IMG/VR virus record: IMGVR_UViG_3300024259_001623
DNA: 64,000 bases
Strand: one strand, 5' to 3'
DNA from: a virus
Taxonomy: Duplodnaviria > Caudoviricetes
Position 1 is the stretch's first letter; every line of letters begins with the position of its first letter. The translations under genes and the position numbers were made by a program. The notes under the pieces are model-generated. The model made no database searches. It saw only the letters and a list, made by a program, of their open reading frames with translations, and had not been told where the DNA came from. Of the stretch, positions 13,284-63,373 are shown in pieces.

Positions 13284-13991
13284 TTATCTTTTTCTTTTTG
13301 CTAATATAGCTGTAGATCCTATCAAAAAAAACAACGCTGTAGTCGGTTCTGGAGTATAAGTATAAGCATCAACGCCAGGTTCTCTCCACCATGACAATAA
13401 TATACTCAAATCTGCATCATCAACAATTCCTACAAAATCATCATTAATAGGATCTTCATGAGTTCCCAACCATACATTTCCTTTTTGATATGTCCGATAT
13501 TCACCCCAATTAGATAACAAAATGCTTAAATCATCATCTTCTACAAATCCATCATGATTCAAATCACCTGGATAAACATCAACCCAAATAAAAACCCATG
13601 AATTATACGATTGACCATCTTCACCAACAAGATTGATCCAATGCTGATCTGCTCCCCAAGAGTCAATCTCTGGTGTAAAAGTATAATAATCCGGCCCCAC
13701 ATCTTGATAAAAATGTACATCTATATCGCCTTTGATAATTCTAGTAGCTCCTATCATAGAGATATTCTTCATACCAATGTCATTTTCTAATGGATAGATA
13801 TTAATACTATTTCCTAATAATACATAATAATCATCTATAGCCCCATCTGCTGGCAATGGATAAAATGGATATACAGTCGCAGGATTAGGATTAAATTCAA
13901 ATTCGTATGCAAAAGAAGGTTGAGTAAAAAATAAAATACAAAATATAATAATAACTAAAATATGCTTCAAATATCTACTTGCAAGTCCCAT
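13284..13991 (-). CDS. Secreted PEP-CTERM protein with dockerin-like motifs
   Basis: ATG at 13991 with GGAGG RBS (track start 14030 is TTG); signal peptide ending QPSFA; GDLNHDGFVEDDDLSILLSNWG and VDDADLSILLSWW; C-terminal TPEPTTALFFLIGSTAILAKRKR. Confidence 0.85.
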   Translation of the reverse strand: MGLASRYLKHILVIIIFCILFFTQPSFAYEFEFNPNPATVYPFYPLPADGAIDDYYVLLGNSINIYPLENDIGMKNISMIGATRIIKGDIDVHFYQDVGPDYYTFTPEIDSWGADQHWINLVGEDGQSYNSWVFIWVDVYPGDLNHDGFVEDDDLSILLSNWGEYRTYQKGNVWLGTHEDPINDDFVGIVDDADLSILLSWWREPGVDAYTYTPEPTTALFFLIGSTAILAKRKR

Positions 13992-14047
13992 AGTACTTGT
14001 CCTCCATGATCCCCCAATAAGTTTCTTCAATCCATTCTTACTTTAGC

Positions 14048-38405: not shown

Positions 38406-40118
38406 TTAACCATCAAAAGATAAATCATCCATAGTGTTCTTTACCTGTTTCTGTTTATCGGAATCAACAGGCTTTCTATAATAAGGATCACTAACTAATT
38501 CTTCCGTATCAGGTTCAGTTAGTTGCATAATCTCTTCTGATTTATAAGTTTTTTCTGGTTTTTTCGCTTTTGGCTTTTTCTTTTTGCCAGCAGAAACTTT
38601 CAGTTCTGTATCCTCTTCAGCGACCTGAATAAACTCTGGAGTTTTATTCCTCGCTCTCCAGTTTCTAGCTTTTTCCGGTTCGCCTGGAAGTTGTTCTCTT
38701 ACTCCGAGATTTGCAATTGGACGAGAACCGTCATTGCACAGACCTGTTTCTTTATTTGGTTCAGAACCATCTGCGCACATTTGAATTGGGGCAGTTAATT
38801 TAGGATTAAAAAAATCTTGTCCTGGTAAGGCTCTATCTTTCGCTGGTAAATCAGCTATTTTTTGAATTTTTTTTTTACTCTGAGCCTCTTTCCAGTTAAA
38901 GGGTTTTCCTTCTGATGCAGGTTCGTAACCTCTTTCAGAGGCTTCTTTTTCTCTCATAGCTTCTAATCTTGCTTCATAACCTTTATGCTCTGGAATATAA
39001 GGCTTTCTTCTTTCCCCTGGCAATAACTGTAAGTTATTTTGTGCAGGGATATTCTTATCTACTTCAAATCTTTTCTGGATGTATCCGCCAACCCATTCGC
39101 CAGTCTTAGTATCACGATAAGGTCTAGAATACTTATCCATGATTGTTCCACGCCAAATGGATTCCCAATCTATATTCCAAACATCATCAACGACAAGACC
39201 GAAGCCCTTGTTTCTTTCGACTATATTCCAATCAGTAACAGGTTGTCTCAAGAAAGGATCGTATCTTTTTTCATTTGGCCCATACATAACAACATTTTCT
39301 ATCGTTTTTGCTTGGGCTTCCTTTTTAAGATTAAAAGGCTTCTTATCTTCTTTAACACTGTCTTGGGCGAGTTTCTTTATACTATTATCAATATCGTTTA
39401 CAAACGATACGATATCTGTCTTTTCTAATTTAGCGTTCTCTATCACTCCTGGCTTAGCCTCCAATGATTTAGGTTCCGAACTTAGATTTTTCCATATAGG
39501 TAAAACCATTTGTATTTTTTTTGTTACTGGATCATCTACAGTATTCCAGTCTACTGTTTCAAAATATTGCTGAAGTTGTCTGTCTAAAGCTTCAACAACT
39601 AAACGACCTTCAGGTGTATCTTCTGATGGAAAAAATTCCATGATCTCATCTCTTGCTCTTTGCTCATCAATATCATCTCTATCTAAATATGCAACTAAAT
39701 CTTCTACGCTGCTTAATTGCATAGACGCCAAAATATTATCATTAGTTTCTTCAACTTCAAATGGAGTATCTTCAGGAGTCACAATTTCATCAACAGGAAA
39801 TTCTGCTTGAGCCTTTTTAAAATTGAAAGGTTTAACTGAGGCAGCAATATTATCAGAAATATCTTGCATTTCTTGCATACTCCTTTCCTGTATCTCCACG
39901 GCAGATATCGCAGCGTCCTCAACGCCCTCTGTAGCGTCTACAACATCCCCAGATTCATCCCTAATGCGATTTAACTCTACTAAGATCAACTGAGGGTCAT
40001 TTAATAACTTAACAGCATCTGGGACTTGTATGCCCTTTTCAGTAAGGTTATCTATCTCTGTCTGTATCGCTTCTAAATCAGACATAGTACCCATATTTTG
40101 TGCTGTTTTATTTTTCAT
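38406..40118 (-). CDS. Putative internal head protein
   Basis: Acidic; starts MKNKTAQ; three KPFN(F/L/W)K..AQ motifs. Confidence 0.6.
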   Translation of the reverse strand: MKNKTAQNMGTMSDLEAIQTEIDNLTEKGIQVPDAVKLLNDPQLILVELNRIRDESGDVVDATEGVEDAAISAVEIQERSMQEMQDISDNIAASVKPFNFKKAQAEFPVDEIVTPEDTPFEVEETNDNILASMQLSSVEDLVAYLDRDDIDEQRARDEIMEFFPSEDTPEGRLVVEALDRQLQQYFETVDWNTVDDPVTKKIQMVLPIWKNLSSEPKSLEAKPGVIENAKLEKTDIVSFVNDIDNSIKKLAQDSVKEDKKPFNLKKEAQAKTIENVVMYGPNEKRYDPFLRQPVTDWNIVERNKGFGLVVDDVWNIDWESIWRGTIMDKYSRPYRDTKTGEWVGGYIQKRFEVDKNIPAQNNLQLLPGERRKPYIPEHKGYEARLEAMREKEASERGYEPASEGKPFNWKEAQSKKKIQKIADLPAKDRALPGQDFFNPKLTAPIQMCADGSEPNKETGLCNDGSRPIANLGVREQLPGEPEKARNWRARNKTPEFIQVAEEDTELKVSAGKKKKPKAKKPEKTYKSEEIMQLTEPDTEELVSDPYYRKPVDSDKQKQVKNTMDDLSFDG

Positions 40119-40826
40119 TTATTTATCCTGTGTTAAATTATCAAACAGGCTATCTACTAAACTACTCATTTTCTTGGTACCTTTATGGTCTTTCCAAGAA
40201 TCATCTTTCTCTTTAGCGGTTCTCGCATTCTCTGCCGAAATCTCTCCCGCTGTCTTCTCGGCCATGTCTTCAAAAACATTTGTATCAAATATGCTTAAAT
40301 TATTTTTAGAAGACTTAAAAGAAGAACCAGAGAATTCTCCAACGCTAGTAACAGTAGAGTCTTTTCTCGTATCAGTTTCAGACAAAGACTCAGCCAAATG
40401 ATCTAAAGACTCTTGCTTCAAACCATTTCTGACTTTTTCGAGACTAGCTCTCTCTTCTCTTATCTTTTCTCCATTGTCTTTTGAATCAATCAATTTTGCT
40501 ATTTTTTCCGAATCCCAAATACTATTTTTAGTTTCTGATCCTAAATGCTTACTAGAACCGCCAATATCAGTAATTCCACCAGAAGCAGAACGACCAGCAG
40601 ATAAAATCCCCTTATCGCCTCTAGTATTAATAACATCTGAATTATTTAATTTTTTAGCCTTTTGCTCCTGAATTAACGTTGCATCCTCTCTAGCCGCCAT
40701 TTCTTTTTTAAAATCATCTTGAGAAGCTTGTTTGTCAAATTTATCATACATCTCATTCTCATCTTCTGTGAATTTTATTCTATTTTGATCTGACATTCTC
40801 TGGATCATATTATTTCTCCGTATCAT
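40119..40826 (-). CDS. Putative head-associated hypothetical protein
   Basis: Charged and hydrophilic; translationally coupled within the head cluster. Confidence 0.6.
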   Translation of the reverse strand: MIRRNNMIQRMSDQNRIKFTEDENEMYDKFDKQASQDDFKKEMAAREDATLIQEQKAKKLNNSDVINTRGDKGILSAGRSASGGITDIGGSSKHLGSETKNSIWDSEKIAKLIDSKDNGEKIREERASLEKVRNGLKQESLDHLAESLSETDTRKDSTVTSVGEFSGSSFKSSKNNLSIFDTNVFEDMAEKTAGEISAENARTAKEKDDSWKDHKGTKKMSSLVDSLFDNLTQDK

Positions 40827-41502
40827 TTAACAAGGTATCAAGTACTGTTTGTCTACTTATCTTCAGTAATTCATTCATTGTACTTGCTTTTGTTTTCTTT
40901 CTACCTTTTTTATCGGAACCACCGCTATATACATCATCAAGAATATCAGACGAAAATTCTGATTCTTCTTCGCCATCCTCTTTTTGAGGCTTTTGAGAAG
41001 AAAAATTCATTGTAATTTTCTTATCTTTTCTTTCTGCATCCACAAAAGTCAAACCAAATTTCTCTTGTATCTCTGATATAATAGTCGAAAAATCTTTATT
41101 AGATATTCTTCCTTTTTTACCATAATATTGATCAGGAATAACAATAGTCATTTCAGTAACTCCACCTGGATAGATCTTTTCGTCTACAAAATCATTTTCA
41201 AATTCTTGTAATCTTCGTGGCGGATAACCAAAACTTTCCAATTTTTCAAATATATATACAGCAACATCGCTTTGAGAATCAGATTCTTTACCTTTTTCTG
41301 GTGCAATATCTTGTTCACTAGAAAAAGGGTCGCCAGGTTGATCACCAGGCGATCCATTTTCTAGCGTATTTTTATTCAGTGGTTGACTCTGGCCTAAATC
41401 CATATCACTTAAAGTCTTATCATCGATATTTAGATCCGGCATATCTTGACTAAAAGTTTGCGCGACCATTGTTCGTTTTGTCCCACTAGGAACAATTGAC
41501 AT
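40810..41502 (-). CDS. Putative head-associated hypothetical protein
   Basis: 230 aa; GGAG RBS; overlaps the next gene. Confidence 0.6.
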   Translation of the reverse strand: MSIVPSGTKRTMVAQTFSQDMPDLNIDDKTLSDMDLGQSQPLNKNTLENGSPGDQPGDPFSSEQDIAPEKGKESDSQSDVAVYIFEKLESFGYPPRRLQEFENDFVDEKIYPGGVTEMTIVIPDQYYGKKGRISNKDFSTIISEIQEKFGLTFVDAERKDKKITMNFSSQKPQKEDGEEESEFSSDILDDVYSGGSDKKGRKKTKASTMNELLKISRQTVLDTLLNDTEK

Positions 41503-41550
41503 TATAAGCTCCTTTTCTAGTTTAAACTGACCTAATATTAATACTTACTA

Positions 41551-42129
41551 TTAATATTCAGCTAACATTGCATCTACGTAGTCAGAAGGATACAGATTAC
41601 CCCAGAATTTCTTTAGGAACTCTCTAGTTTTTCCATCAAGCTTGGCAAGTTTAACAAAAGATTCAGTTTCGCTGGCTTCTCTACCCTTCTGGTGAAGAGG
41701 CTCAACGTCTAGCTGACCAGAACTATCGGCTTCGTCATTGTTTGACTTGCCTTTTGTTCTTTTTCCCTTTTCAGGAGTATTAACCAATTTGGCCTCTGCC
41801 TCTGGCTGACCACTTGAGTCTGCCTCGTCTTTTTCAGCTACTTTCGCGGTCTTGCAATCTTTTTCATCTTCTTTTTCTTCGTCTTTGTCATCTTCTTTCT
41901 TATCTTCGTCTTTATCTTCGTTGTCTGTCTTACCTGTCTGCTTCTTTTCAATAGCTTCTTGCAAAGCAGGAGGAAGATTCTTCTGTTTTTCTGACAATTC
42001 TGCTGTTTTAATCTCTTCGTCAGCAGAAGCAGTTTTAACAGTAGGCTTCCCAAGCTTCTCATTTACCAAATCTTCAAAACTTTTACCTTGCCCCATCTTG
42101 ATTACGCCTGTCATAAACTTAACACCCAT
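41551..42129 (-). CDS. Highly charged putative head-associated protein
   Basis: KTAS, KTAE and KTAK motifs; duplicated DEADSSGQ; D/E/K tract. Confidence 0.65.
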   Translation of the reverse strand: MGVKFMTGVIKMGQGKSFEDLVNEKLGKPTVKTASADEEIKTAELSEKQKNLPPALQEAIEKKQTGKTDNEDKDEDKKEDDKDEEKEDEKDCKTAKVAEKDEADSSGQPEAEAKLVNTPEKGKRTKGKSNNDEADSSGQLDVEPLHQKGREASETESFVKLAKLDGKTREFLKKFWGNLYPSDYVDAMLAEY

Positions 42130-42160
42130 TTTATTACTCCTATTAACGATAATTTTGCTT

Positions 42161-42192
42161 TTTATATTTTCACAGAATACGCAAAATACCTT
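42161..42192 (-). promoter_or_regulatory. Putative late promoter AAGGT-N20-ATATAAA
   Basis: Same spacing as 9555-9586 and 55849-55880. Confidence 0.45.
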
Positions 42193-42226
42193 TTAATTAA
42201 AATGCTATATTATTACTGTAAATCCT

Positions 42227-43945
42227 TTATTTTATTTTATTTTTAGATGAAGCTCTTGGTCCTACAACCCCTTCAGTTTGTTGTTCAGCAGGTATTTCCC
42301 CAGACATCATCCGATCTTGAGGAGCGGCTGGAGCAACAGCTTCAGGCTTAGGCTGCAAGAATCTATCTAAATTAGGTAATGATTTCATAACATATGTTAT
42401 GGCTCCCAAAACCCCAGATTTCGCTTTTTTGTCTTCTGGACCAACTTGTGCTGCTGCCAATTTACTTTTAATATCATTCAAAAATGCAACAACACTATCA
42501 ACATTTAACATATCTGCTTGAGGTTCCTGTTCGACAGTCGGCTCAACAGCTTGTTCGCCAGCCTGATCAGCAGGATCAGAAAAAGCAGCTAATTGATCTG
42601 CATAATTTTGCTGTATAAATTTAGCGGCCATAGGAATTTGGCCAGTAGAATTAAGACTTTTCCAAAAAGCTTGTGCAAACTGTTTAGGATTTCTTTGGAA
42701 CATAGCAGATAATTCCTGCTCTCCTATGGCAGCTTTTTTATTCATTCTATTAGAAAAAGCAACAGTTTGAGGGGCGTTTTTCTTAGCATAAGTAGTAAAA
42801 TACTGAAGAACTATCTGACTCATAGAAGGATCATTCATAATTAATCTCATAATGCCAGCGGCATTGGTGGGATCAGAAGCTACAGCCAATTCTCCTGGAG
42901 TCAAATCCCCCTGAACAGCAGCTTGTTGCTGTTCTCCAGGTTGCGTCTGCGCTCCAGCAGGCAAGGGTGGAGGAGCCGATTGTTCCTTACTCTCCATAGA
43001 GTTATACCAACCTTGTATGCTTTTCACTAAATTATTTAATAAATTAATTCTTTGACCTTCTTCAACTCTACTGTTTAATGCTTGATAAGACTGCATTACC
43101 GATTGCATATTAGGATCATCGCCAGTAGTTAATCTCTTAAATACGTTAAGGTCTTCCTGCATATCAACTTGGAAGTTATGCATCAAATTTTTATAATTTG
43201 CCAAAGACTGCTGATCTCTTGGGCTTTGTCTCCATTGCTGGAAAGCCGTGCTAACTTCTCTAGCAGCAGAAATAAGGTTCTGTACTCTTCCTTGTAATTG
43301 AGATTTATTACTTCTAAACCAATTCAAAGGATTCCAATTTCCGCCTGCACCGCCGCCAAAGGCAGATTCTTTAACAACTTCACTAGCAACACTTATAAGA
43401 GCTTTAGATATCTCATCATTACCAGTTTTGCTAATTTCTTCTGAAATACTTAATAATGAATCAGAACAATCAACCATTTTATTAGAATATTTATTCAATC
43501 CTTCTTCTACTGCATAAGCAAAAGCAAAACCTACAGATTCGCCAGCTTCTATCTTATTTTTCAAATTATTAAAAAATTCTTCTCTTTCTCTTTTGATAAT
43601 CTTCTTTTCAAAATCGCTTGAAGATGCAGTTTTGATCAAACTATCATCGCCAGCATATTTTTCCCATCCACTTTTATCATTGTTGATAGACTCAAGATAC
43701 TCTTTGTGGCATTTCTCCCAAACATTTTGAGCAGCCATGTCTGGATTAGTAACTCTTCCCTGTCTATAACAATTCTGCCAACATCTAGAGTTTCTAATCA
43801 TATATCCCTGCACACCAACAAATTGTGCGGTCTTAACCGACAAAAGACTTCTTGATACTTTATCAATTTTACCGGAAATATTTTTTAGATCTTTACTGTC
43901 TAATTTCTCAGCGATATCGGCTAATTTTTTAATAATATTTTCCAT
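42227..43945 (-). CDS. Putative internal head protein (Ala/Gln-rich, helical)
   Basis: VKTAQFVGVQGY...CWQNC...CHKEY; IKTAS; Q/A/P-rich linkers. Confidence 0.6.
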   Translation of the reverse strand: MENIIKKLADIAEKLDSKDLKNISGKIDKVSRSLLSVKTAQFVGVQGYMIRNSRCWQNCYRQGRVTNPDMAAQNVWEKCHKEYLESINNDKSGWEKYAGDDSLIKTASSSDFEKKIIKREREEFFNNLKNKIEAGESVGFAFAYAVEEGLNKYSNKMVDCSDSLLSISEEISKTGNDEISKALISVASEVVKESAFGGGAGGNWNPLNWFRSNKSQLQGRVQNLISAAREVSTAFQQWRQSPRDQQSLANYKNLMHNFQVDMQEDLNVFKRLTTGDDPNMQSVMQSYQALNSRVEEGQRINLLNNLVKSIQGWYNSMESKEQSAPPPLPAGAQTQPGEQQQAAVQGDLTPGELAVASDPTNAAGIMRLIMNDPSMSQIVLQYFTTYAKKNAPQTVAFSNRMNKKAAIGEQELSAMFQRNPKQFAQAFWKSLNSTGQIPMAAKFIQQNYADQLAAFSDPADQAGEQAVEPTVEQEPQADMLNVDSVVAFLNDIKSKLAAAQVGPEDKKAKSGVLGAITYVMKSLPNLDRFLQPKPEAVAPAAPQDRMMSGEIPAEQQTEGVVGPRASSKNKIK

Positions 43946-43966
43946 TATTCCACCTTTTAAAAGTTA

Positions 43967-44638
43967 TTATTTATGATTTCTCATCCTTCTGAGTCTTCTT
44001 CTATAGTTTTTTCTACTTCTTGAGAAATTAAACTTAGGAGAAAACTTTTCTCCTGTAAATTTATATCCTTTTGGATATTCTCCTGATTTAACTATATTTT
44101 CTGAGATATAAGTCCTTATACCTCCAACGGTATCATCCCAAACTGCAAAATTTCTTCTATTAGTAGTCTTAGCAAAAAAGTCTCCATGAGGTTCTACATC
44201 TCTTACTAAACTAGTTCCATTCAATGTAACATAATTTATTCTTACAGTTTCGTTATTATGCTTCGCCCATCTTAAAGCTTGAAAAACTGAAGAAAATTCA
44301 GGATATCCTTCAGGTTCAATGACTTCATCTGTCTCAGTTTCTCCTTCTTCTTCCAACGCATCTTGTGCCAAATCATCTAAATCATCTGGACTATATGTTT
44401 CTAAATCTTCATCATAATAATCTTCTAATTCTTCATCGCTTAAAGTATCTTCTAAATCATCATCTTTTGTTCCCATCTCATCGTCGCTAAGATCTAAAAG
44501 TTCTTCATTTCCATACACATCATCGTAATTTCTGTTAAAGTCATCAAGATTATCTTCATCAGTAGTATCCAAAGAATCTTCGATATTTCTTTGGGATAAT
44601 ACTATTTTTTCAAAATTTTCAGTGTATATTTTTTTCAT
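43967..44638 (-). CDS. Acidic protein with C-terminal WYL-like domain
   Basis: VRINYVTLNGTSLVRDVEPHG...GGIRTYISENI resembles the WYL core. Confidence 0.6.
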   Translation of the reverse strand: MKKIYTENFEKIVLSQRNIEDSLDTTDEDNLDDFNRNYDDVYGNEELLDLSDDEMGTKDDDLEDTLSDEELEDYYDEDLETYSPDDLDDLAQDALEEEGETETDEVIEPEGYPEFSSVFQALRWAKHNNETVRINYVTLNGTSLVRDVEPHGDFFAKTTNRRNFAVWDDTVGGIRTYISENIVKSGEYPKGYKFTGEKFSPKFNFSRSRKNYRRRLRRMRNHK

Positions 44639-44658
44639 TTACTAAATTTACTTTTATT

Positions 44659-45039
44659 TTACTGTTTTCCTTTATTTTTCATAAACAATATAGTCATGTC
44701 ATCTTCAAAATCTATATTATCTCCAGCGGCTATATTGTTATCACTAAAAAATCCCTTATTCGCTTCTATAGCCATAATGCATTCTTTATCGCTAGAGACA
44801 CTCTTGAATGATTTAGGATTAATTTCCCCTATTTTAATTATCTCTAATTTATCTGTAACAAATGCTATATCTAATGGAATATATGTATTTAATCCCCAAA
44901 ATTTTAATATATCATTCCGATTAAATTTAAAAAGCATACCAGCTTTTTTATCTAATTGGGTTCTATACATAAGACCTCGTTCCCATTTACTAGGAGAATC
45001 AGCTATCTCAACAAATAATTTAACTTTTTTATCAGACAT
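44659..45039 (-). CDS. DUF192 family protein
   Basis: VEIADS...RGLMYR...GMLF...FWGLNTYIPLDIAFV; likely start 45039 (TAATG overlap, GGAG RBS). Confidence 0.85.
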   Translation of the reverse strand: MSDKKVKLFVEIADSPSKWERGLMYRTQLDKKAGMLFKFNRNDILKFWGLNTYIPLDIAFVTDKLEIIKIGEINPKSFKSVSSDKECIMAIEANKGFFSDNNIAAGDNIDFEDDMTILFMKNKGKQ

Positions 45040-51451: not shown

Positions 51452-54400
51452 CTATGTATATATAACCTGTTTTTTAATCCTAAAATCACCAATAAAACTA
51501 TCTGTTTTTTGACGGATTCTGAAATAATAAACTTGGCCTCTTGTTAAAAAATCGTTTGTCACACTATTGTATCTTATTCTCATGTTAACAAACTCGGTCG
51601 TAACTCCGCCAGCGGGGAAATCTTCAAACACATTAAATTCTTTTTCATATTGCCAGCCAGCTATACTTTTAGTTGTATCTATTGTGTCAATAATAGTAGA
51701 AAAATCTATAGAATCAGATACTTCTAAATCAAAATTATAAACAGCATATTCTCCCAACTCGTCTAAAATAATATCTTCATATGTCCAGAATCCCTCGCTA
51801 TAATACAAAGAACTAGGTAAAACACTTGTCACATCATTATGGACACCTATATATAATTCACTTATATCATAGCCATTTTGCTCTAAAAAGTCTTCAAAAC
51901 TAACTACTTGTTCATCTGGCTGGCTATTTATGTTAGGAACCACGACTTGTGAAGCGTAATCAAACAGACCCCTTAAAGGATCGCTCATCCTGTAAATACG
52001 CTGGTCGGTATTGGTCGCAATAGATAAATCGCTAACTGAACTAAGTAAATCTATTTCTGTTGCCATATTAGTGCTACAGCATATTTCATTTTTCAAAGTT
52101 ATACCGTTTATCTCTTTACCCCAATGATTCCCCATCATTTTCGCAGTTAAGATATTTAAATTATTCCATATATCTGATTCATTTATATCTTTATCATCTA
52201 CTAAAGAAGATTCGCTATTTTCTGGGAAAGCAAACGTTGCTAATGGATCTCCTATAAGAGTATTCGTCCAATTTAAAAATGGTTCACTCAATAAGTATGC
52301 CTCTCCCAATTTCGCTCCTGCATTAATAGCCTTAAAGAAAGGATCAGGTCTTAGAAAACCAGAGATAGTAGGATTAGACAAAGCCCCAGCAATACCTACA
52401 TATCCAGCAGAGATAGCCAATGGAGCAAAATTACCATCATCAAAACTTCTTAATGTAGAAGCGCTATCAAAATCAGCATTGTAGAAAAATGCTCTGGCAG
52501 TATCGGTGCTTTTAAAATATGATTGAGTCGTTCTGTCAGTGAACCATCCCCAATAAAAAGAATCATGTTGCAAAAATGGAGTTACAACATCTATATTGCT
52601 ACTAATATATTTTGTAGTAGATACTTCTGATACGTTCAATTTTAACAATAAATTATTTTGGAATGATACCAGGTCTTCTGTATACTGAACAGCAGCATCA
52701 ATATCTTCTGGGATAACCAGACCTTGAGTAAGTAGATACCCAAGAGGAAAATATCCAGGAGCAAAATATCCATCTGGAAAATATAAATTTGTAGAGCTAG
52801 TAGCGTTTGAATCTGCTGCTGATCCCGAACCAGACTCTAAATTGGAATAAGCATCAAAATAAAATCTTCCATTAGCAAAATATTGGTTTCTTAATTCATC
52901 ACCGAATTTTATAAGTTTTTTAGCTTCTTCCAAGGTTGGGCCATCTATTCTAGAACAAATTATCGCATCAGAAAAATCACTCGTAGTCAAAACATAAGGA
53001 TTTCTTCTATTATATAAGAAATTATTTTCTTTCTTGCTATAAGTAAAATTAATTTTTGATATTCTAGACGTAGAAGATATAATATCATTTCCATCTATAA
53101 ACCCACCTGGAACATTATATCCTAAAATAACGACATTGATACTAGTCAATGAACCATCGATGGCAGTCTTAATTGTATCCTCAACTTCATCTTGAAAATC
53201 TTCGTAACTATCTAATATCTCATCAGAACTACAATCGACAGCCAATTTGGTCACATTAAAATCATAATATTTTTCTACATATAAATCTGCTAATGCTTCG
53301 CTTTCTGCATCATCTCCCTTATAAACGAAAAGAACATTATAGTCTGGATCTTCAATTAATTCTACATCAAATATTTGACTACCTTCTCCTACATAAGTTA
53401 TTCTATATAGATCTCCATTAGCTAATCTTTCTATAGAATCACCAGACGTATCAAAAATATGTGGAGACGATCCCCCAGAATTCCAATATAGCTTTGAATT
53501 TCTATCCTCTATTGTAAAAGATTGTCCAGATAAAGAGATAGAAGCAATTGTCCCTTCATCGCTTAAAAATCTCACTCTGGTAATTCTAATATTTTTTTCA
53601 TCCTCATTTATACTTAACTCTTTATTAACAGAAACAATTCTAGACAATGTTGTTCTTAAATCAGTTGCATTTTCTGGAGATCCATTTGAAGAATAAGCTG
53701 TAAATAATGTTATATAGCCCGTGCTAAAAGCCCTAAAAGAATATTCTTCCCCCGGCAATAAAATATTTTCTAGTATTCCATCAGATGTTAAATTATTAAA
53801 AAGATAAGAGTCTATAATAGAAGCCCCTCCCTCTTCAAGTCTGTATGCATCACAAGTATAAATCCAACCTTCTGGACTTGTCGGCATATTAGACACATCT
53901 AATCTAATATAATCTCCCTCTTTAGCATAAAAAGTATAAAATCTAAAATCATCACTCTCGTCTTCAAGATTAGCAGGGCCTGGGACCGTAGACTCAACAA
54001 TTTTATTAGAAAATATATTTGGAATTTCATCAAGCCTAAAATTATCATCTCTTATACCGGGGATACCGGCAGATATCAAAGACAAACTAAAAGCTGGTCT
54101 GGCTTTATCAACAGCTCCAACGGTAGTCTTTGATGGAGTATAAGTTACTGTAGAATCATCTATTTCTACAGTAAAATGTCTTTGCCATGTTGGAGTCCCA
54201 GTATCAACAATTTGTAAAGGAACTATTTTTTCAGTTTCGCCTGGCAAAAATGTTAATATGGCTGGCGAATCAACAATAAAATCAACTCCATTCACAGCGG
54301 TGTCATCAATCACATTATAAGTTATCTGTATACTATCATAATTTTCATTAGAAGAATCTATAGAAGTTTGATCTAATCTAAAAATAATTCCATCATCAGC

Positions 54401-55816
54401 AAATTTTAAAGATGTATCATTAATATTATTATCAGTTGATAATAATAATATATCAAATTCTATTTGTTTAGGATGAACTCCATTTGGAAAAGGATCTGCC
54501 CCATAAGCTGCTTGAGTCTTACCAAAAATGAAGTCCATATGAGTAGTCAATGGATAAGTTTTAGCAGGTGCACCGACATGACATGTAGCAGGATTATTTA
54601 CAAGCCAAGTTGTGCCTCCTCCCAAATCAATTCTTTCTACATCAAACGCCAATGCTAATTTATGATCATTTCCGATAGTACATCCTGTAGCCCCTTCATT
54701 ATCAGCAGCAACAGCTAAAACAGGAATATGAAAATATCTTTGTACTTCTTGATCCATTCTTTGTTCATATTTATACCATCCTTCTTTATTACTTATGTAT
54801 GCTGGACCAATTGCAGTTCCTTCAACTGCCCACCCTGCTGCCGCATAATCTCTCAATGTTTTCATTAAATCAAAAGTTCCGATACCACCCATCGAAAAAC
54901 CAGTTACATAAATTTTAGAAGTATCTATTTTATAATCAGCATTTGCAATAAGACTAATCAATAATGATCTAATAGCTGAACAATAATAACCATTTTCTAA
55001 AATAGAAGTCTGATTATGAAATGGGACTTCTTGAGCGCCATCATCTCCCCAGGGGTAATAATTAGAACTTGATGGTATAATAGTACTAGACGGAGTAGTA
55101 GTAATAGGCATTGGAGCAACAGAAAAACATTTATAAGCTGGAGTCATAAAATGATTCGCAAAATATAAACTAGAAAAAGCAACATTCGGTTCTATCTGTT
55201 TTGTATTTGCCAAATACTCAGACATAGTATCCCCGACACCACCAGTACCTGGTTCATAAATAATAATTGGATACGTAGTGGCTTGATTAGAATCATAATC
55301 TTTTGGGAATAAAAATCTATATGGTAAAAAACCATCCGTAGGATATCCAGTTCCTCCCCCAAAATCATAGAAAAATGATTCATGACCATAAAATGTGTCA
55401 GTACCAGTCCAAAATATATCTTGAAAATTAGCAGGATCGCTACCAGTGATATCTAAAACTACCCACGCATATCTTCTAGCTTTTTCTTGAGTAAAATCCG
55501 CTTCAACACCATCAGACATCGCCTGAAAATCAGTTAAACGACGAAAACCAGTAAAGATGGAATCATCAAAAACATCCGAGGCCCAATAAGCCACAGCAGC
55601 ACTAACAGCAGTTGTTCCTCCAGCAAAAGTTATAGTAACTCTATGAAACATTAATTCATTATCAGACCCAGCATCGATAGATGGAGATACTAAATAATCA
55701 GTTCCTCCATATGAATATGTAAACCAATCACCATATCCAGGTGAAGTAACCCCATCAGCAGGATTCGCCTGAGAAAAAGTAGTTTCATTAGCAGAAAACG
55801 GTCTTGTAATAGCCAT
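51452..55816 (-). CDS. Large multidomain protein: alpha/beta hydrolase, Calx-beta and TIGR03790-like domains
   Basis: KIYVTGFSMGG nucleophile elbow; DDTAVNGVDF...LTFLPGETEKIVPLQIVD; VLFVY...SEALADLY...SRIDGP...LGEAYLLSEPFLNWTNTLIGDPL. Confidence 0.75.
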   Translation of the reverse strand: MAITRPFSANETTFSQANPADGVTSPGYGDWFTYSYGGTDYLVSPSIDAGSDNELMFHRVTITFAGGTTAVSAAVAYWASDVFDDSIFTGFRRLTDFQAMSDGVEADFTQEKARRYAWVVLDITGSDPANFQDIFWTGTDTFYGHESFFYDFGGGTGYPTDGFLPYRFLFPKDYDSNQATTYPIIIYEPGTGGVGDTMSEYLANTKQIEPNVAFSSLYFANHFMTPAYKCFSVAPMPITTTPSSTIIPSSSNYYPWGDDGAQEVPFHNQTSILENGYYCSAIRSLLISLIANADYKIDTSKIYVTGFSMGGIGTFDLMKTLRDYAAAGWAVEGTAIGPAYISNKEGWYKYEQRMDQEVQRYFHIPVLAVAADNEGATGCTIGNDHKLALAFDVERIDLGGGTTWLVNNPATCHVGAPAKTYPLTTHMDFIFGKTQAAYGADPFPNGVHPKQIEFDILLLSTDNNINDTSLKFADDGIIFRLDQTSIDSSNENYDSIQITYNVIDDTAVNGVDFIVDSPAILTFLPGETEKIVPLQIVDTGTPTWQRHFTVEIDDSTVTYTPSKTTVGAVDKARPAFSLSLISAGIPGIRDDNFRLDEIPNIFSNKIVESTVPGPANLEDESDDFRFYTFYAKEGDYIRLDVSNMPTSPEGWIYTCDAYRLEEGGASIIDSYLFNNLTSDGILENILLPGEEYSFRAFSTGYITLFTAYSSNGSPENATDLRTTLSRIVSVNKELSINEDEKNIRITRVRFLSDEGTIASISLSGQSFTIEDRNSKLYWNSGGSSPHIFDTSGDSIERLANGDLYRITYVGEGSQIFDVELIEDPDYNVLFVYKGDDAESEALADLYVEKYYDFNVTKLAVDCSSDEILDSYEDFQDEVEDTIKTAIDGSLTSINVVILGYNVPGGFIDGNDIISSTSRISKINFTYSKKENNFLYNRRNPYVLTTSDFSDAIICSRIDGPTLEEAKKLIKFGDELRNQYFANGRFYFDAYSNLESGSGSAADSNATSSTNLYFPDGYFAPGYFPLGYLLTQGLVIPEDIDAAVQYTEDLVSFQNNLLLKLNVSEVSTTKYISSNIDVVTPFLQHDSFYWGWFTDRTTQSYFKSTDTARAFFYNADFDSASTLRSFDDGNFAPLAISAGYVGIAGALSNPTISGFLRPDPFFKAINAGAKLGEAYLLSEPFLNWTNTLIGDPLATFAFPENSESSLVDDKDINESDIWNNLNILTAKMMGNHWGKEINGITLKNEICCSTNMATEIDLLSSVSDLSIATNTDQRIYRMSDPLRGLFDYASQVVVPNINSQPDEQVVSFEDFLEQNGYDISELYIGVHNDVTSVLPSSLYYSEGFWTYEDIILDELGEYAVYNFDLEVSDSIDFSTIIDTIDTTKSIAGWQYEKEFNVFEDFPAGGVTTEFVNMRIRYNSVTNDFLTRGQVYYFRIRQKTDSFIGDFRIKKQVIYT

Positions 55817-55848
55817 AATTATTCCATATTTACATTGTCTAGTTAATC

Positions 55849-55880
55849 TTTATATTTTAAAAAAAATACATAATTACCTT
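55849..55880 (-). promoter_or_regulatory. Putative late promoter AAGGT-N20-ATATAAA
   Basis: Lies in the divergent intergenic region upstream of the 1454-aa gene and TerL operon. Confidence 0.45.
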
Positions 55881-55936
55881 TTTATTATCGTAAATTAACG
55901 ATATATAAGTACTGGACCACACAAAAGGAGAATAAA

Positions 55937-57088
55937 ATGAAAGTCTTCACATCTGGTTGTTTTGATGTCATGCATAGCGGACATATCAATTTTTTAACAA
56001 AAGCATCAAAATATGGAGAATTGTATGTTGCCGTAGGATCAGACAGAACTATCGAATCACTAAAAGGTAGAAAACCCATAAATAATGAAAGAGAAAGACT
56101 ATATATGGTAAACTCTCTTAATTGCGTCAAAGAAGCCTTTATATCATCTGGCGATGGGATATTAGATTTTCAAAAAGAAATTAGAACAATAGAACCTCAT
56201 ATTTTTATTGTTAATAATGACGGTAACTATAAAGAAAAAAGAGATTTATGTGAACAATTAGGAATTGAATATCTTGTTTTAGAAAGAGATGTGATTATGA
56301 CAACCGAGCCTAAAAGCTCAACTCATATAATATCTAAGAGTAATATCCCATTTAGAATAGATATGTCTGGAGGGTGGCTAGATCAGCCCTTTGTGTCAAA
56401 GTATTACCCAGGATGCGTAACAACCATAAGTATAGAACCAATTATAGAATTTAATAATAGAAGCGGAATGGCTTCAAGCACAAGAAAAACTGCAATAGAA
56501 TTATGGCAAAATGATATCCCATGCTGGAATAGCTTTGAAAGACTAGCAAAAATATTATTTTGCTGCGATAATCCTCCCGGCAAAAAAGAAATTTCTGGCT
56601 CTCAAGATGCAATAGGTATCACTATACCAGGAATAAATCGAGCGAACTATGATGGAGAATACTGGCCAGAAAGTATAGAATCTATCAACGATGACAAAAC
56701 TATCAACTGGCTAGAAGATATCATAAAGATAATACCTTTGTGCCCAAGAAGTTATGATTATAATGTTCTATCGAACACAGACATAACCGAAGAACATGCA
56801 CAAAAATTATCATATGCGTCTAACAAATGCTGGAAAGCAATGAAAAATAGAAAATTAGACTTATTAGGCAAATGGATGATAAATTCTTTTAAGAGTCAAA
56901 TAAAAATGTTTCCTAGTATGATTAACGACGATATACAAACCATTATAGACAAATATTCTGATTTGATGTGCGGATACAAGATATCTGGAGCAGGGGGAGG
57001 GGGATATATTATAGCTGTGTCAGATAAACCTATACCAGACTCTATAAGTATAAAAATAAGAAGAAAACAACATTACGAAATATTATGA
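55937..57088 (+). CDS. Cytidylyltransferase-like (HxGH) domain fused to a GHMP sugar kinase
   Basis: SGCFDVMHSGH nucleotidyltransferase; RIDMSGGWLD, RSGMASS, SGSQD and KISGAGGGG GHMP motifs; AAGGAG RBS. Confidence 0.88.
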   Translation: MKVFTSGCFDVMHSGHINFLTKASKYGELYVAVGSDRTIESLKGRKPINNERERLYMVNSLNCVKEAFISSGDGILDFQKEIRTIEPHIFIVNNDGNYKEKRDLCEQLGIEYLVLERDVIMTTEPKSSTHIISKSNIPFRIDMSGGWLDQPFVSKYYPGCVTTISIEPIIEFNNRSGMASSTRKTAIELWQNDIPCWNSFERLAKILFCCDNPPGKKEISGSQDAIGITIPGINRANYDGEYWPESIESINDDKTINWLEDIIKIIPLCPRSYDYNVLSNTDITEEHAQKLSYASNKCWKAMKNRKLDLLGKWMINSFKSQIKMFPSMINDDIQTIIDKYSDLMCGYKISGAGGGGYIIAVSDKPIPDSISIKIRRKQHYEIL

Positions 57089-60922: not shown

Positions 60923-63373
60923 TTATCTTCGTCTTCTAAAAGCTCTTGGCACTGCACTCTCTGTGCCAAATCCCATTGGATCAGAAGAACCTTCTGACAA
61001 ATTTGTAAAATCTTTACTTTTTATTTCATCTAGCGCTTTATAAAAATGATCAGAATTTAAAATAGCAATATCGTTGTCATCTGTATCTCCTGACTGTATA
61101 GCTAAAAACACTGCTGTTATGCATAAATCTTTAATATAAGCTCCACTCATCTCTTCCTTATCTTCATCAATTTCGGCAGCTATACCCTCAAAATCCACAT
61201 CCTTATGGACTTGGAATTTTTCTGTGAACTTTTTCAACATTTTTGCAACTTGCTTAGAATTCGGGTTATCAATATTAATAATCCTATCAAATCTGCCTGG
61301 TCTATTCTTAATAGCATTCTCAACTTTTTCTGCCAAATTAGTTGTAGCCACAGTCACAACGCTTTTAAAACTTTCTATACCATCCATTTTGTTCATTAAA
61401 TCAATAACAAACCAATCATTTCCATCTCCGCGATCCTGTGCTATATAATCAATATCTTCCAATATTAACAATGTAGGAGCTAAGTCTTTCGCCATGTCGC
61501 AAATCTTTGCCACATCTCCTTGGTTTCGTATATGAGAAGGCAAAACATATAAAACTGTAACTGACAATTCTTTAGCTAAAACCTTGCAGATCATGGTATT
61601 ATGAGTTATAATATAATTATTAGTTATATATAAATGATCTTCACTTTCAAGTAATATACACTGAGACTGTTCTTTCCCTTTAAGATTTATAGAAGACAAA
61701 ATCCTTACTGTCAAATATTTTGTGCGTTCTTTTACTTTATTTATTTTTCTCTTTAAACGGAAAAGCCTATATGCATCTTTTATGCTAATCCTTACACTAA
61801 AACTATTTAATCCGTTTTTTATTTCTCCGTTATACGAATACTTTACATTCTTTTTCTCCTTAATCGTGGCGATGCCGCCCAAAGATTGCACAATCTCCTT
61901 AACTCCTTCAGCAAGACACTTCGAAGTCGTATAAAAAACTGGCATTCCTGTTTTTTCGACACTTCCATCAGAATCCATTAACCCTTGTAAGATAGATATC
62001 CTACGATCAACTGAATTATAAATATAATCTTTTGGAATAAATTTATCTTGACTTTTTACTTTCCAAAGACCTAGATCTTTTATCTTTTTAACCAGAGAGT
62101 TAGACTTTCCCCTACTACCAGAAGAAATCCTAAAATCATAATCGCTAATTTCGCTTAGTGACAAATTATCCACAGAAACTAAATCGCTAATTATACTTAG
62201 TATCTCACTATCAGCAGTAGAAAAATTCAGCCCATTAGAACAAAAACATCCATCTCCCAATAAAAACCCTAACAAATAAGGATCAATAGAAATTTTTCTT
62301 TTTTCAAAAGAAACGGGTTCTGGCACCCTAATTCTAATATTCCTATATTCTCCAACTCTAACTCTATCTATTAAGTATTTTGTATCTACAATTTTAGGAC
62401 TACCACCGGAAGACTTATCACTAACCTCCCAAAGATGGTCAATACAGCATTCGACTTCATCTCCATTTTTAAATTTAAGCGTATATATTTCCTTTTCTCC
62501 CTGTGGATATACTCCTACAACCTTAGAACTTCCACCTGAAGCATTACAAACCATGTCTCCAATTTTTATCTCACCCATTGTTTTAATACCGTCTGGTGTA
62601 TAAACAAAAGAACTTAGAGGTTGAGCTTTCCCCGTTCCGGGAGGCCCCGTCAATATAATTCCTCTTTTAAGATTGATTCCATTCTTTTCCAAGATGTCAG
62701 CTTTGTCAAATAGATCTTTGACATTTCTTTGTATAACATCCTTGGCTTCTTTAGATATAATTATATCTTCCCAACATATATTTTCATCCAAATCCAAAAA
62801 AGCACAGTCTGGATTTATACTTTGACCTTTATAGAAATTATTCTCAATTGAGTAGGTTTTCCAATCCTCAAACACATCTTTAACACAACTTGAGAATACA
62901 TCAAAATAATAAAAACCATCATAGGCGTCTTTTGTTATCTTTACGCATACTCTGTCTTTAGCAGTTTTATTTTCAAAAAACAAAAATGCATTTAAATATC
63001 CATCTACGAACTTACCCTTTTCATATTCAATTTGATATTTTTTAGCCTTAGTTATGAACTCTCCATCATGAATACTAAAAGATCTAACAAAACTAAATCC
63101 AATAGTCTCAAAGAAATCTTTCATAGCAAATTGCATGATATTATTTACATAACTAGGAATCCCTGAAGTAAAAGTAGAAAAGTCTTTTTTATTAAAAAAG
63201 TCTTTTATAACAAGATCTTCTAGAACATTATTATAAGAAGCCTTATTGAATTGATCTAAATTGCATTCTGCCAATTTAGTTGTTTTATCTTCTGGACTAA
63301 GATTTCTACTTTCTGAACTGTACGCTTTCTCGATTGAACTAATTGAACTAATTGAACTAATTGTTTTTTTCAT
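60923..63373 (-). CDS. AAA+ ATPase with intein
   Basis: GPPGTGK|T Walker A split by the intein; LILEDID Walker B; TTN sensor; RPGRFD arginine finger. Confidence 0.9.
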   Translation of the reverse strand: MKKTISSISSISSIEKAYSSESRNLSPEDKTTKLAECNLDQFNKASYNNVLEDLVIKDFFNKKDFSTFTSGIPSYVNNIMQFAMKDFFETIGFSFVRSFSIHDGEFITKAKKYQIEYEKGKFVDGYLNAFLFFENKTAKDRVCVKITKDAYDGFYYFDVFSSCVKDVFEDWKTYSIENNFYKGQSINPDCAFLDLDENICWEDIIISKEAKDVIQRNVKDLFDKADILEKNGINLKRGIILTGPPGTGKAQPLSSFVYTPDGIKTMGEIKIGDMVCNASGGSSKVVGVYPQGEKEIYTLKFKNGDEVECCIDHLWEVSDKSSGGSPKIVDTKYLIDRVRVGEYRNIRIRVPEPVSFEKRKISIDPYLLGFLLGDGCFCSNGLNFSTADSEILSIISDLVSVDNLSLSEISDYDFRISSGSRGKSNSLVKKIKDLGLWKVKSQDKFIPKDYIYNSVDRRISILQGLMDSDGSVEKTGMPVFYTTSKCLAEGVKEIVQSLGGIATIKEKKNVKYSYNGEIKNGLNSFSVRISIKDAYRLFRLKRKINKVKERTKYLTVRILSSINLKGKEQSQCILLESEDHLYITNNYIITHNTMICKVLAKELSVTVLYVLPSHIRNQGDVAKICDMAKDLAPTLLILEDIDYIAQDRGDGNDWFVIDLMNKMDGIESFKSVVTVATTNLAEKVENAIKNRPGRFDRIINIDNPNSKQVAKMLKKFTEKFQVHKDVDFEGIAAEIDEDKEEMSGAYIKDLCITAVFLAIQSGDTDDNDIAILNSDHFYKALDEIKSKDFTNLSEGSSDPMGFGTESAVPRAFRRRR
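61598..62626 (-). mobile_element. Ala-initiated (class 3-type) intein with LAGLIDADG endonuclease (343 aa)
   Basis: GK|AQPLSS...DHLW...QCILL...ITHN|T; LLGFLLGDG and LQGLMDSDG. Confidence 0.9.
63333..63363. repeat. 9-bp tandem repeat ATTGAACTA x3.4 (encodes SSI repeats)
   Basis: Directly visible at the 5' end of the AAA gene. Confidence 0.9.

Follow-up and report, generated by a model that had tools for sequence, protein, structure and literature searches.

The window analysed here is a stretch of 64,000 nt from the IMG/VR record IMGVR_UViG_3300024259_001623 (Caudoviricetes), in which a minus-strand open reading frame (ORF) at positions 51452-55816 encodes a giant protein of 1454 amino acids (aa), named P0001, whose residue numbers are used throughout. 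The ORF is open over its full length and, as stated in a preliminary description of this DNA, its product has no signal peptide; transmembrane segments were likewise absent (highest 19-aa hydropathy average 1.25). The giant ORF is the first minus-strand gene past a 120-bp AT-rich divergent intergenic region and is followed, after a gap of 8 bp, by a gene for a 235-aa protein, here called the partner, and after a further 2 bp by the gene for the large terminase subunit (TerL). The proposal that the giant gene heads a terminase operon fits this tight spacing to TerL. A promoter scan gave 45 sites against 38 +/- 5 expected, no excess over chance, so that the place at the head of the operon follows from gene spacing and not from promoter-like sites. 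The C-terminal ~630 aa of the protein are a conserved phage gene, consisting of a TIGR03790-like part and a tail of helices and an FN3-like domain. Together with the partner, the giant protein may form a conserved module of two proteins, of which it would be the large subunit, in a clade of huge marine phages. The features are compiled in Table 1.

Table 1 Features of the giant protein gene and of its surroundings in the 64,000-nt window
Feature	Positions	Strand	Residues	Remark
Whole ORF, P0001	51452..55816	-	1454 aa	open reading frame, no signal peptide
Alpha/beta-hydrolase (putative esterase) domain	54482..55369	-	about 150-445	oxyanion strand candidate at 182-193
Ser308 codon, candidate nucleophile in G-F-S-M-G-G	54893..54895	-	308	aligned with the GxSMGG elbow of the PDB esterases 3wyd and 3doh
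Probable Calx-beta domain	54107..54331	-	496-570	HMM match, E 5e-5, 23.8 bits
Beta-rich region, possibly a PPC-type (pre-peptidase C-terminal) domain	53612..54019	-	about 600-735	lead only
Junction domain, small, beta	53351..53581	-	746-822	common to partner and other cargo-bearing members
TIGR03790-like domain, gingipain-type clan CD fold without His/Cys dyad	52217..53350	-	823-1200	HMM, model and alignment
(YFxxG)3 repeat in inserted loop 995-1041	52736..52783	-	1012-1027	loop modelled as disordered
Three long helices, predicted partner docking surface	51926..52180	-	1213-1297	core and complex models
C-terminal FN3-like beta-sandwich	51455..51802	-	1339-1454	Z 7-9 to FN3 domains
Partner gene	50736..51443	-	235 aa	N-terminal ~130 aa helical and conserved; C-terminal 161-232 a junction-domain copy
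TerL	48841..50733	-	630 aa	next gene downstream of partner gene
AT-rich divergent intergenic region	55817..55936	.		upstream of ORF; promoter-like hexamers present, not above chance
PEP-CTERM protein gene	13284..14030	-		ends in PEP motif, hydrophobic stretch and RKR

Only one relative of nearly the same length was found, an 845-aa protein that shares residues 753-1454 with 35% identity and lacks the esterase/Calx-beta part. Family searches were performed with a profile built from this shared C-terminal part. The core was found in 25 IMG/VR loci, where its base form of ~590 aa begins directly at the TIGR03790-like domain, and its family amounts to 850 representative clusters at E<=1e-3, of which 138 also reach E<=1e-30. 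Several of the ~590-aa phage members have already been labelled as TIGR03790 family by the Joint Genome Institute (JGI). The core gene is present as a single copy in all four complete relatives (461-548 kb) and belongs to a conserved gene order of AAA ATPase, ribonucleotide reductase (RNR), dUTPase, core gene, small gene, TerL and a run of shared unknown genes, being located between dUTPase and TerL in relatives with the RNR-dUTPase arrangement. Among TerL-anchored loci with enough upstream sequence, which were collected by an alignment-based scan (a scan with a single TerL sequence gave none), 37 of 55 have the core gene at most 7 kb upstream of TerL. A scan of genome contigs for family relatives found none and hence offered no clue to a host or a prophage. 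In a few loci the family gene is interrupted: it is split into a 545-aa ORF and a separate C-terminal piece in L020/L021 (9983-12501) and broken into short ORFs in L024 (10001-11648); such patterns may result from an insertion, from division of the gene or from the use of a different genetic code.

The assignment of this part of the protein to the neighbourhood of TIGR03790, an NCBIfam family of uncharacterised bacterial proteins, had been made in the preliminary description, and a search with the corresponding hidden Markov model (HMM) bore it out. The HMM matched the giant protein with E 2.7e-10 in two stretches that cover both halves of the model, scoring 40.2 bits over the full protein and 43.8 bits over the isolated domain, against a curated cut-off of 67 bits; all HMM matches of the giant protein were of this kind, significant, yet under the curated cut-off. 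One relative scored 67.5 bits, and the HMM was matched by 59 of 62 phage relatives (best E 4.9e-30). The predicted fold agrees. A model of the core (residues 820-1454, from an alignment of 62 sequences) reached a predicted local distance difference test (pLDDT) value of 89 and a predicted template modelling (TM) score of 0.85, and it superposed on an Atlas TIGR03790 cluster with a TM score of 0.76 by target (326 aa aligned, root-mean-square deviation (rmsd) 2.8). Residues 4-381 of the model matched the whole two-subdomain catalytic domain of the gingipains RgpB and Kgp (Porphyromonas gingivalis; MEROPS C25, clan CD) with a Z score of 24 (287-294 aa aligned, rmsd 3.1-3.4), and weaker matches were obtained to separase (Z 11-14), PorU (Z 11.4), CHAT proteases, legumain and caspases. 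The helical region following this domain had no match to a known fold above noise (Z about 7.5).

Although the whole catalytic-domain fold is shared with the gingipains, the phage domain differs from them in lacking a conserved catalytic His and Cys and any sequence similarity. No His or Cys column reached 50% in the second subdomain among the 62 phage members, and no His or Cys was invariant between the phage members and three bacterial TIGR03790-type relatives, two of which score above the curated cut-off. A profile search against PDB sequences gave no similarity to any solved peptidase. A gingipain fold without the catalytic dyad is, by the defining chemistry, not a C25 peptidase, and the reading as an active C25 protease was therefore rejected. 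What is conserved instead is a set of mainly acidic, aromatic and Ser/Arg residues. Fifteen columns are invariant across the phage members and the bacterial proteins P0129 (99.5 bits), P0139 (136.5 bits) and P0132 (65.4 bits, just under the cut-off); S839, Y846, D958, D988, D1085, Y1139 and E1172 are common to the phage family and the bacterial relatives, while R1108, N1113, D1115 and D1190 are conserved within the phage family only. In the second subdomain, the residues conserved in the phage family also include S1147.

These second-subdomain residues (D1085, R1108, N1113, D1115, S1147, E1172 and D1190), together with the clan CD fold and the match to PorU, would be compatible with an active peptidase or transpeptidase that uses non-canonical residues and processes PEP-CTERM or other surface proteins of the host in a PorU-like manner. 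The phage does have a PEP-CTERM gene, as had been noted beforehand: 13284-14030 passes TIGR02595 with 16.9 bits against a cut-off of 16, and PEP-CTERM proteins above the cut-off were also found in two of the four complete huge-phage relatives (L108 and L109, 29.1 and 22.4 bits). An exosortase gene is absent from all five related phage records, of which four are complete, so that these phages would depend on a sorting enzyme of the host; a literature search on PEP-CTERM in phages returned nothing relevant. Given the missing His and Cys columns, the lack of any such residue in common with the bacterial relatives and the absence of similarity to solved peptidases, we regard a peptidase of this type as very improbable.

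The invariant residues thus join the HMM match over both halves and the predicted fold as features that the phage domain shares with TIGR03790. It differs from that family in scoring under the cut-off, in lacking a signal peptide and in being encoded by a phage; moreover, the phage form always continues into the helical and FN3 tail that is predicted to bind a partner. A further difference is the (YFxxG)3 insert, which had been noticed previously and is indeed present at residues 1012-1027, in a loop between the two gingipain-like subdomains; the repeat is unique to P0001 among the retrieved proteins. Other members also have aromatic-rich inserts between the two subdomains, and the member in L003 (9896-9970) begins with an aromatic repeat, FPAKYF..KYY..KYFPP, that is like the (YFxxG)3 loop in another position. 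In the bacterial proteins related by structure, the fold is accompanied by Por_Secre_tail, TSP_3 and Big_7 domains. TIGR03790 is described as being confined to exosortase-bearing prokaryotes; no paper mentioning the family was found in the literature.

The second component of the module is encoded by a gene for ~125 aa directly downstream of the core gene in nearly all loci, often overlapping its stop codon; homology of these proteins to the 235-aa partner in the window covers the N-terminal ~130 residues of the latter. When the core was modelled together with this part of the partner, the interface score ipSAE (interaction prediction score from aligned errors) was 0.77, compared to 0.02 for the best of three controls; among solved complexes, 58 of 80 attain the mark used for this score, as do 2 of 110 mismatched pairs. 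Between runs, 38% or more of the contacts were the same, and the partner had a pLDDT of at least 77. In the predicted interface, which comprises core residues 1216-1291, the helices in the N-terminal half of the partner bundle with those of the core and also contact the FN3 domain.

Residues 161-232 of the partner (50739-50963) are a copy (E 3e-7) of the ~75-residue junction domain that precedes the TIGR03790-like domain in the giant protein. An HMM of the junction domain found it just before the TIGR03790-like domain in other members bearing N-terminal additions (cargo), including one of 4086 aa, and also in extended partners of other phages; its sites include L032 (5168-5359) and P0027 (3405-3467). 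Searches covering the junction domain gave no match to a family or a solved structure. Where TerL is closest to that of the window (63% identity; L032/L078, 3933-6970), the core is reduced to a gene for 262 aa of the helical/FN3 part, and the partner has grown to 750 aa with no family match. Apparently, cargo can sit on either subunit.

The conserved position directly upstream of TerL and the helical, ~125-aa partner, a size typical of small terminases, raise the question of a role in packaging or head assembly, with the partner as small terminase or packaging factor, the core at the portal vertex and the cargo being incidental; no other candidate for a small terminase was identified. We consider such an accessory function improbable, as the partner has no terminase-family match in PHROGs, Pfam or NCBIfam and is extended to 722-750 aa in some phages, the glycan-type cargo described below has no obvious role in packaging, and the core gene is divergent from TerL in locus L026.

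The ~820-830 aa that precede the core in P0001 have a different character. No relatives of this N-terminal part were found in the word-indexed protein search, in IMG/VR or in JGI metagenome contigs, and in the collections searched the esterase and Calx-beta part is an add-on without detectable relatives. A single-sequence AlphaFold2 model of the N-terminal 830 aa was unusable (pLDDT 31), and the domains of this part were therefore delimited from sequence alone. The hydrolase with a GFSMGG motif that had been proposed here was corroborated insofar as GFSMGG, at residues 306-311, corresponds to a G-x-S-x-G nucleophile elbow and aligns with the elbows of solved esterases. PDB sequence matches were obtained to LC-Est1C (3wyd, E 1.4e-7) and Thermotoga maritima EstA (3doh, E 1.3e-5), and NCBIfam models of the PHB-depolymerase type matched weakly near residues 286-343 (E 1.6e-6 and 1.4e-5). 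The scores of the PHB-depolymerase-type and Abhydrolase_2 models (27.8, 24.7 and 13.5 bits) did not pass the respective cut-offs of 150, 107.85 and 23. All neighbours of the region in a language-model comparison were alpha/beta-hydrolases, which we take as a lead. The likely esterase thus shares the oxyanion-strand region and the GxSMGG elbow with LC-Est1C, EstA and the PHB-depolymerase-type enzymes and differs from them in that the alignment, which spans the oxyanion strand to the nucleophile elbow, ends after the elbow, in HMM scores far under the cut-offs and in that searches with the N-terminal regions around it gave no close homologue. The triad partners Asp372 and His426 are candidates picked by eye in the stretch beyond the alignments.

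A Calx-beta domain in the same protein, likewise part of the preliminary description, is probable: residues 496-570 cover profile positions 39-117 of 119 of PF03160, with a score of 23.8 bits against a gathering score of 27, and the top PDB sequence match of this region was the Calx-beta domain of NCX1 (E 0.1). We consider this region to be probably a divergent Calx-beta member. For the beta-rich region at residues ~600-735, HMM scans gave no match, and the possible PPC-type domain listed in Table 1 is a lead from language-model features with a score of 0.87, which is under the trust level of 0.9.

Other long members of the family have unrelated domains at the same N-terminal position. The 4086-aa member carries a right-handed beta-helix (Beta_helix), and a ConA-like lectin domain (Laminin_G_3), a Kelch propeller, PASTA domains and a Metallophos/PhoD-like phosphoesterase were detected in further members, which suggests that different phages place different glycan-active or glycan-binding cargo before the core. 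What is conserved is hence the gingipain-fold platform with its partner, and the esterase and Calx-beta domains are lineage-specific, which revises the earlier view of the protein. P0001 and P0003 both begin with MAITRP(F/Y), followed by ~750 and ~170 unrelated residues, respectively; the common start might reflect either conservation of the context for translation initiation or a short signal.

Thirteen genes lie on the minus strand between TerL and the portal gene (38406-48779), and for most of them conservation is detectable in related loci. A function-annotated PHROG was matched by none of the thirteen, the five scanned against Pfam had no significant match, and ten conserved downstream genes had no PHROGs match; the virion module in this phage clade is essentially unannotated. 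Upstream, an 816-aa ATPase (60923-63373, minus strand), which is kept upstream of RNR in most related loci, had PHROG matches labelled both 'terminase large subunit' and primase/helicase loader. The divergent neighbour of the giant gene (55937-57088, plus strand) encodes a nucleotidyltransferase fused to a GHMP-type sugar kinase C-terminus. Its transferase part was matched by RfaE domain II-like models (E 6e-20) and also by CTP_transf_like, and the arrangement, which resembles fucokinase/fucose-1-P guanylyltransferase, probably represents a sugar-activation step in a single protein.

Several of these observations are consistent with the suggestion of the preliminary description that the protein acts outside the cell on polysaccharide, for which the cargo types, the FN3-like tail and the extracellular-type domains of the bacterial relatives provide circumstantial support. 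Without an export signal, only display on the virion or lysis would get the protein out of the cell. Taking together the glycan-type cargo, the FN3-like tail, the bacterial extracellular architectures, the missing signal peptide and the single-copy gene beside packaging and head genes, we favour, with a probability of roughly 0.45, a virion-exposed platform that displays swappable glycan-active cargo, in this phage an esterase for host exopolysaccharide. Ig- and FN3-like domains are reportedly found in tailed phages almost only in virion proteins. The complex would sit on the outside of the virion, with the helical/FN3 tail and the partner as attachment unit, followed in the N-terminal direction by the TIGR03790-like, gingipain-type domain without dyad, which might supply recognition of a glycan or glycoprotein. 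The cargo before this core, here the junction domain, a further beta domain, the Calx-beta domain and the esterase with its presumed nucleophile Ser308, would act on polysaccharide of the host surface. The esterase may remove acyl groups, probably O-acetyl groups, from exopolysaccharide or capsule, and this deacylation could help adsorption or passage through the slime layer.

The virion-exposed platform would resemble the polysaccharide enzymes that tailed phages are generally described to carry on the particle (tailspike depolymerases, deacetylating esterase spikes and the phi29 gp12 neck appendage) in that a glycan-directed enzyme is fused to a conserved phage module, that cargo is exchanged between related phages and that the small downstream gene recalls fibre-assembly partners. 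It differs from the tailspike-type enzymes, which have an N-terminal anchor and a variable C-terminus, since here the conserved part is C-terminal; its anchor is a gingipain-fold, helical and FN3 unit instead of a trimeric N-terminal adaptor. Decoration proteins of the T4 Hoc type, as commonly described, share with it exposed Ig/FN3-type domains (Ig, immunoglobulin), an exposed and variable N-terminal part and C-terminal attachment. No match to Hoc in sequence or fold was found, and the core here greatly exceeds it in size, has the shape of an enzyme and comes with a partner subunit. A more far-reaching proposal is that the module constitutes an undescribed cargo-display apparatus on the particles of a large clade of huge phages, of reversed polarity, anchored by its conserved C-terminal part and with an exchangeable enzyme or lectin at the N-terminus, in the role that a tail spike has in small phages, which would imply a glycan-directed, non-proteolytic function for the bacterial TIGR03790 proteins as well; this we hold to be doubtful.

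The same features could also belong to a soluble, non-structural late enzyme complex that does not enter the particle and that acts inside the cell on precursors of host exopolysaccharide or on the phage's own glycosylated particle proteins, or else strips slime from neighbouring cells after lysis. The sugar-activating enzyme gene that divergently adjoins the giant gene and the absent signal peptide would suit such a complex. It appears unlikely to us, as FN3, lectin, Calx-beta, PASTA and beta-helix domains are typical of outside-facing proteins, and a structural role agrees better with a gene that is conserved as a single copy, next to head and packaging genes and tightly coupled to a partner. 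The location in the head module would in turn permit an effector that is loaded into the capsid, injected with the DNA and active on the host envelope from within. Neither a member of 4086 aa nor the FN3 and lectin domains suit ejection well, and we rate this as highly improbable.

A number of observations weigh against the virion-exposed platform. The polarity, with a conserved C-terminus and a variable N-terminus, is the reverse of that of classical tail spikes and fibres, and the gene lies at the border of nucleotide metabolism and packaging, not among recognisable tail genes, next to conserved genes without family matches. One third of the TerL-defined relatives have no core gene near TerL; these loci also lack the RNR/dUTPase block and thus have another arrangement. 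No match was obtained when the whole protein was compared by tblastn with 50,697 phage records or when 62 family members were searched against PHROGs. On the side of the cargo, all esterase matches were under curated cut-offs, the triad Asp and His candidates are not aligned, and the structure model of the N-terminal part was unusable, as mentioned above. Finally, the TIGR03790 family is itself functionally uncharacterised.

Almost all knowledge of huge phages comes from metagenomes, and little is understood of the way in which they recognise the surface layers of their hosts and pass through them. If the favoured interpretation is true, a two-subunit, single-copy module that swaps esterase, beta-helix, lectin, Kelch and phosphoesterase domains is a candidate for their host-surface machinery and could mark which glycans they target. 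New here are the family-wide synteny with TerL, the predicted interface with the partner, the common junction domain, the pattern of cargo swapping and the putative esterase/Calx-beta variant. The TIGR03790 family gains a predicted fold (gingipain-like, without dyad), conserved residues of acidic and aromatic type and a context of probable glycan-active cargo and co-occurrence with PEP-CTERM. Should the module not be part of the virion, it would still represent an undescribed conserved phage complex encoded beside the terminase.

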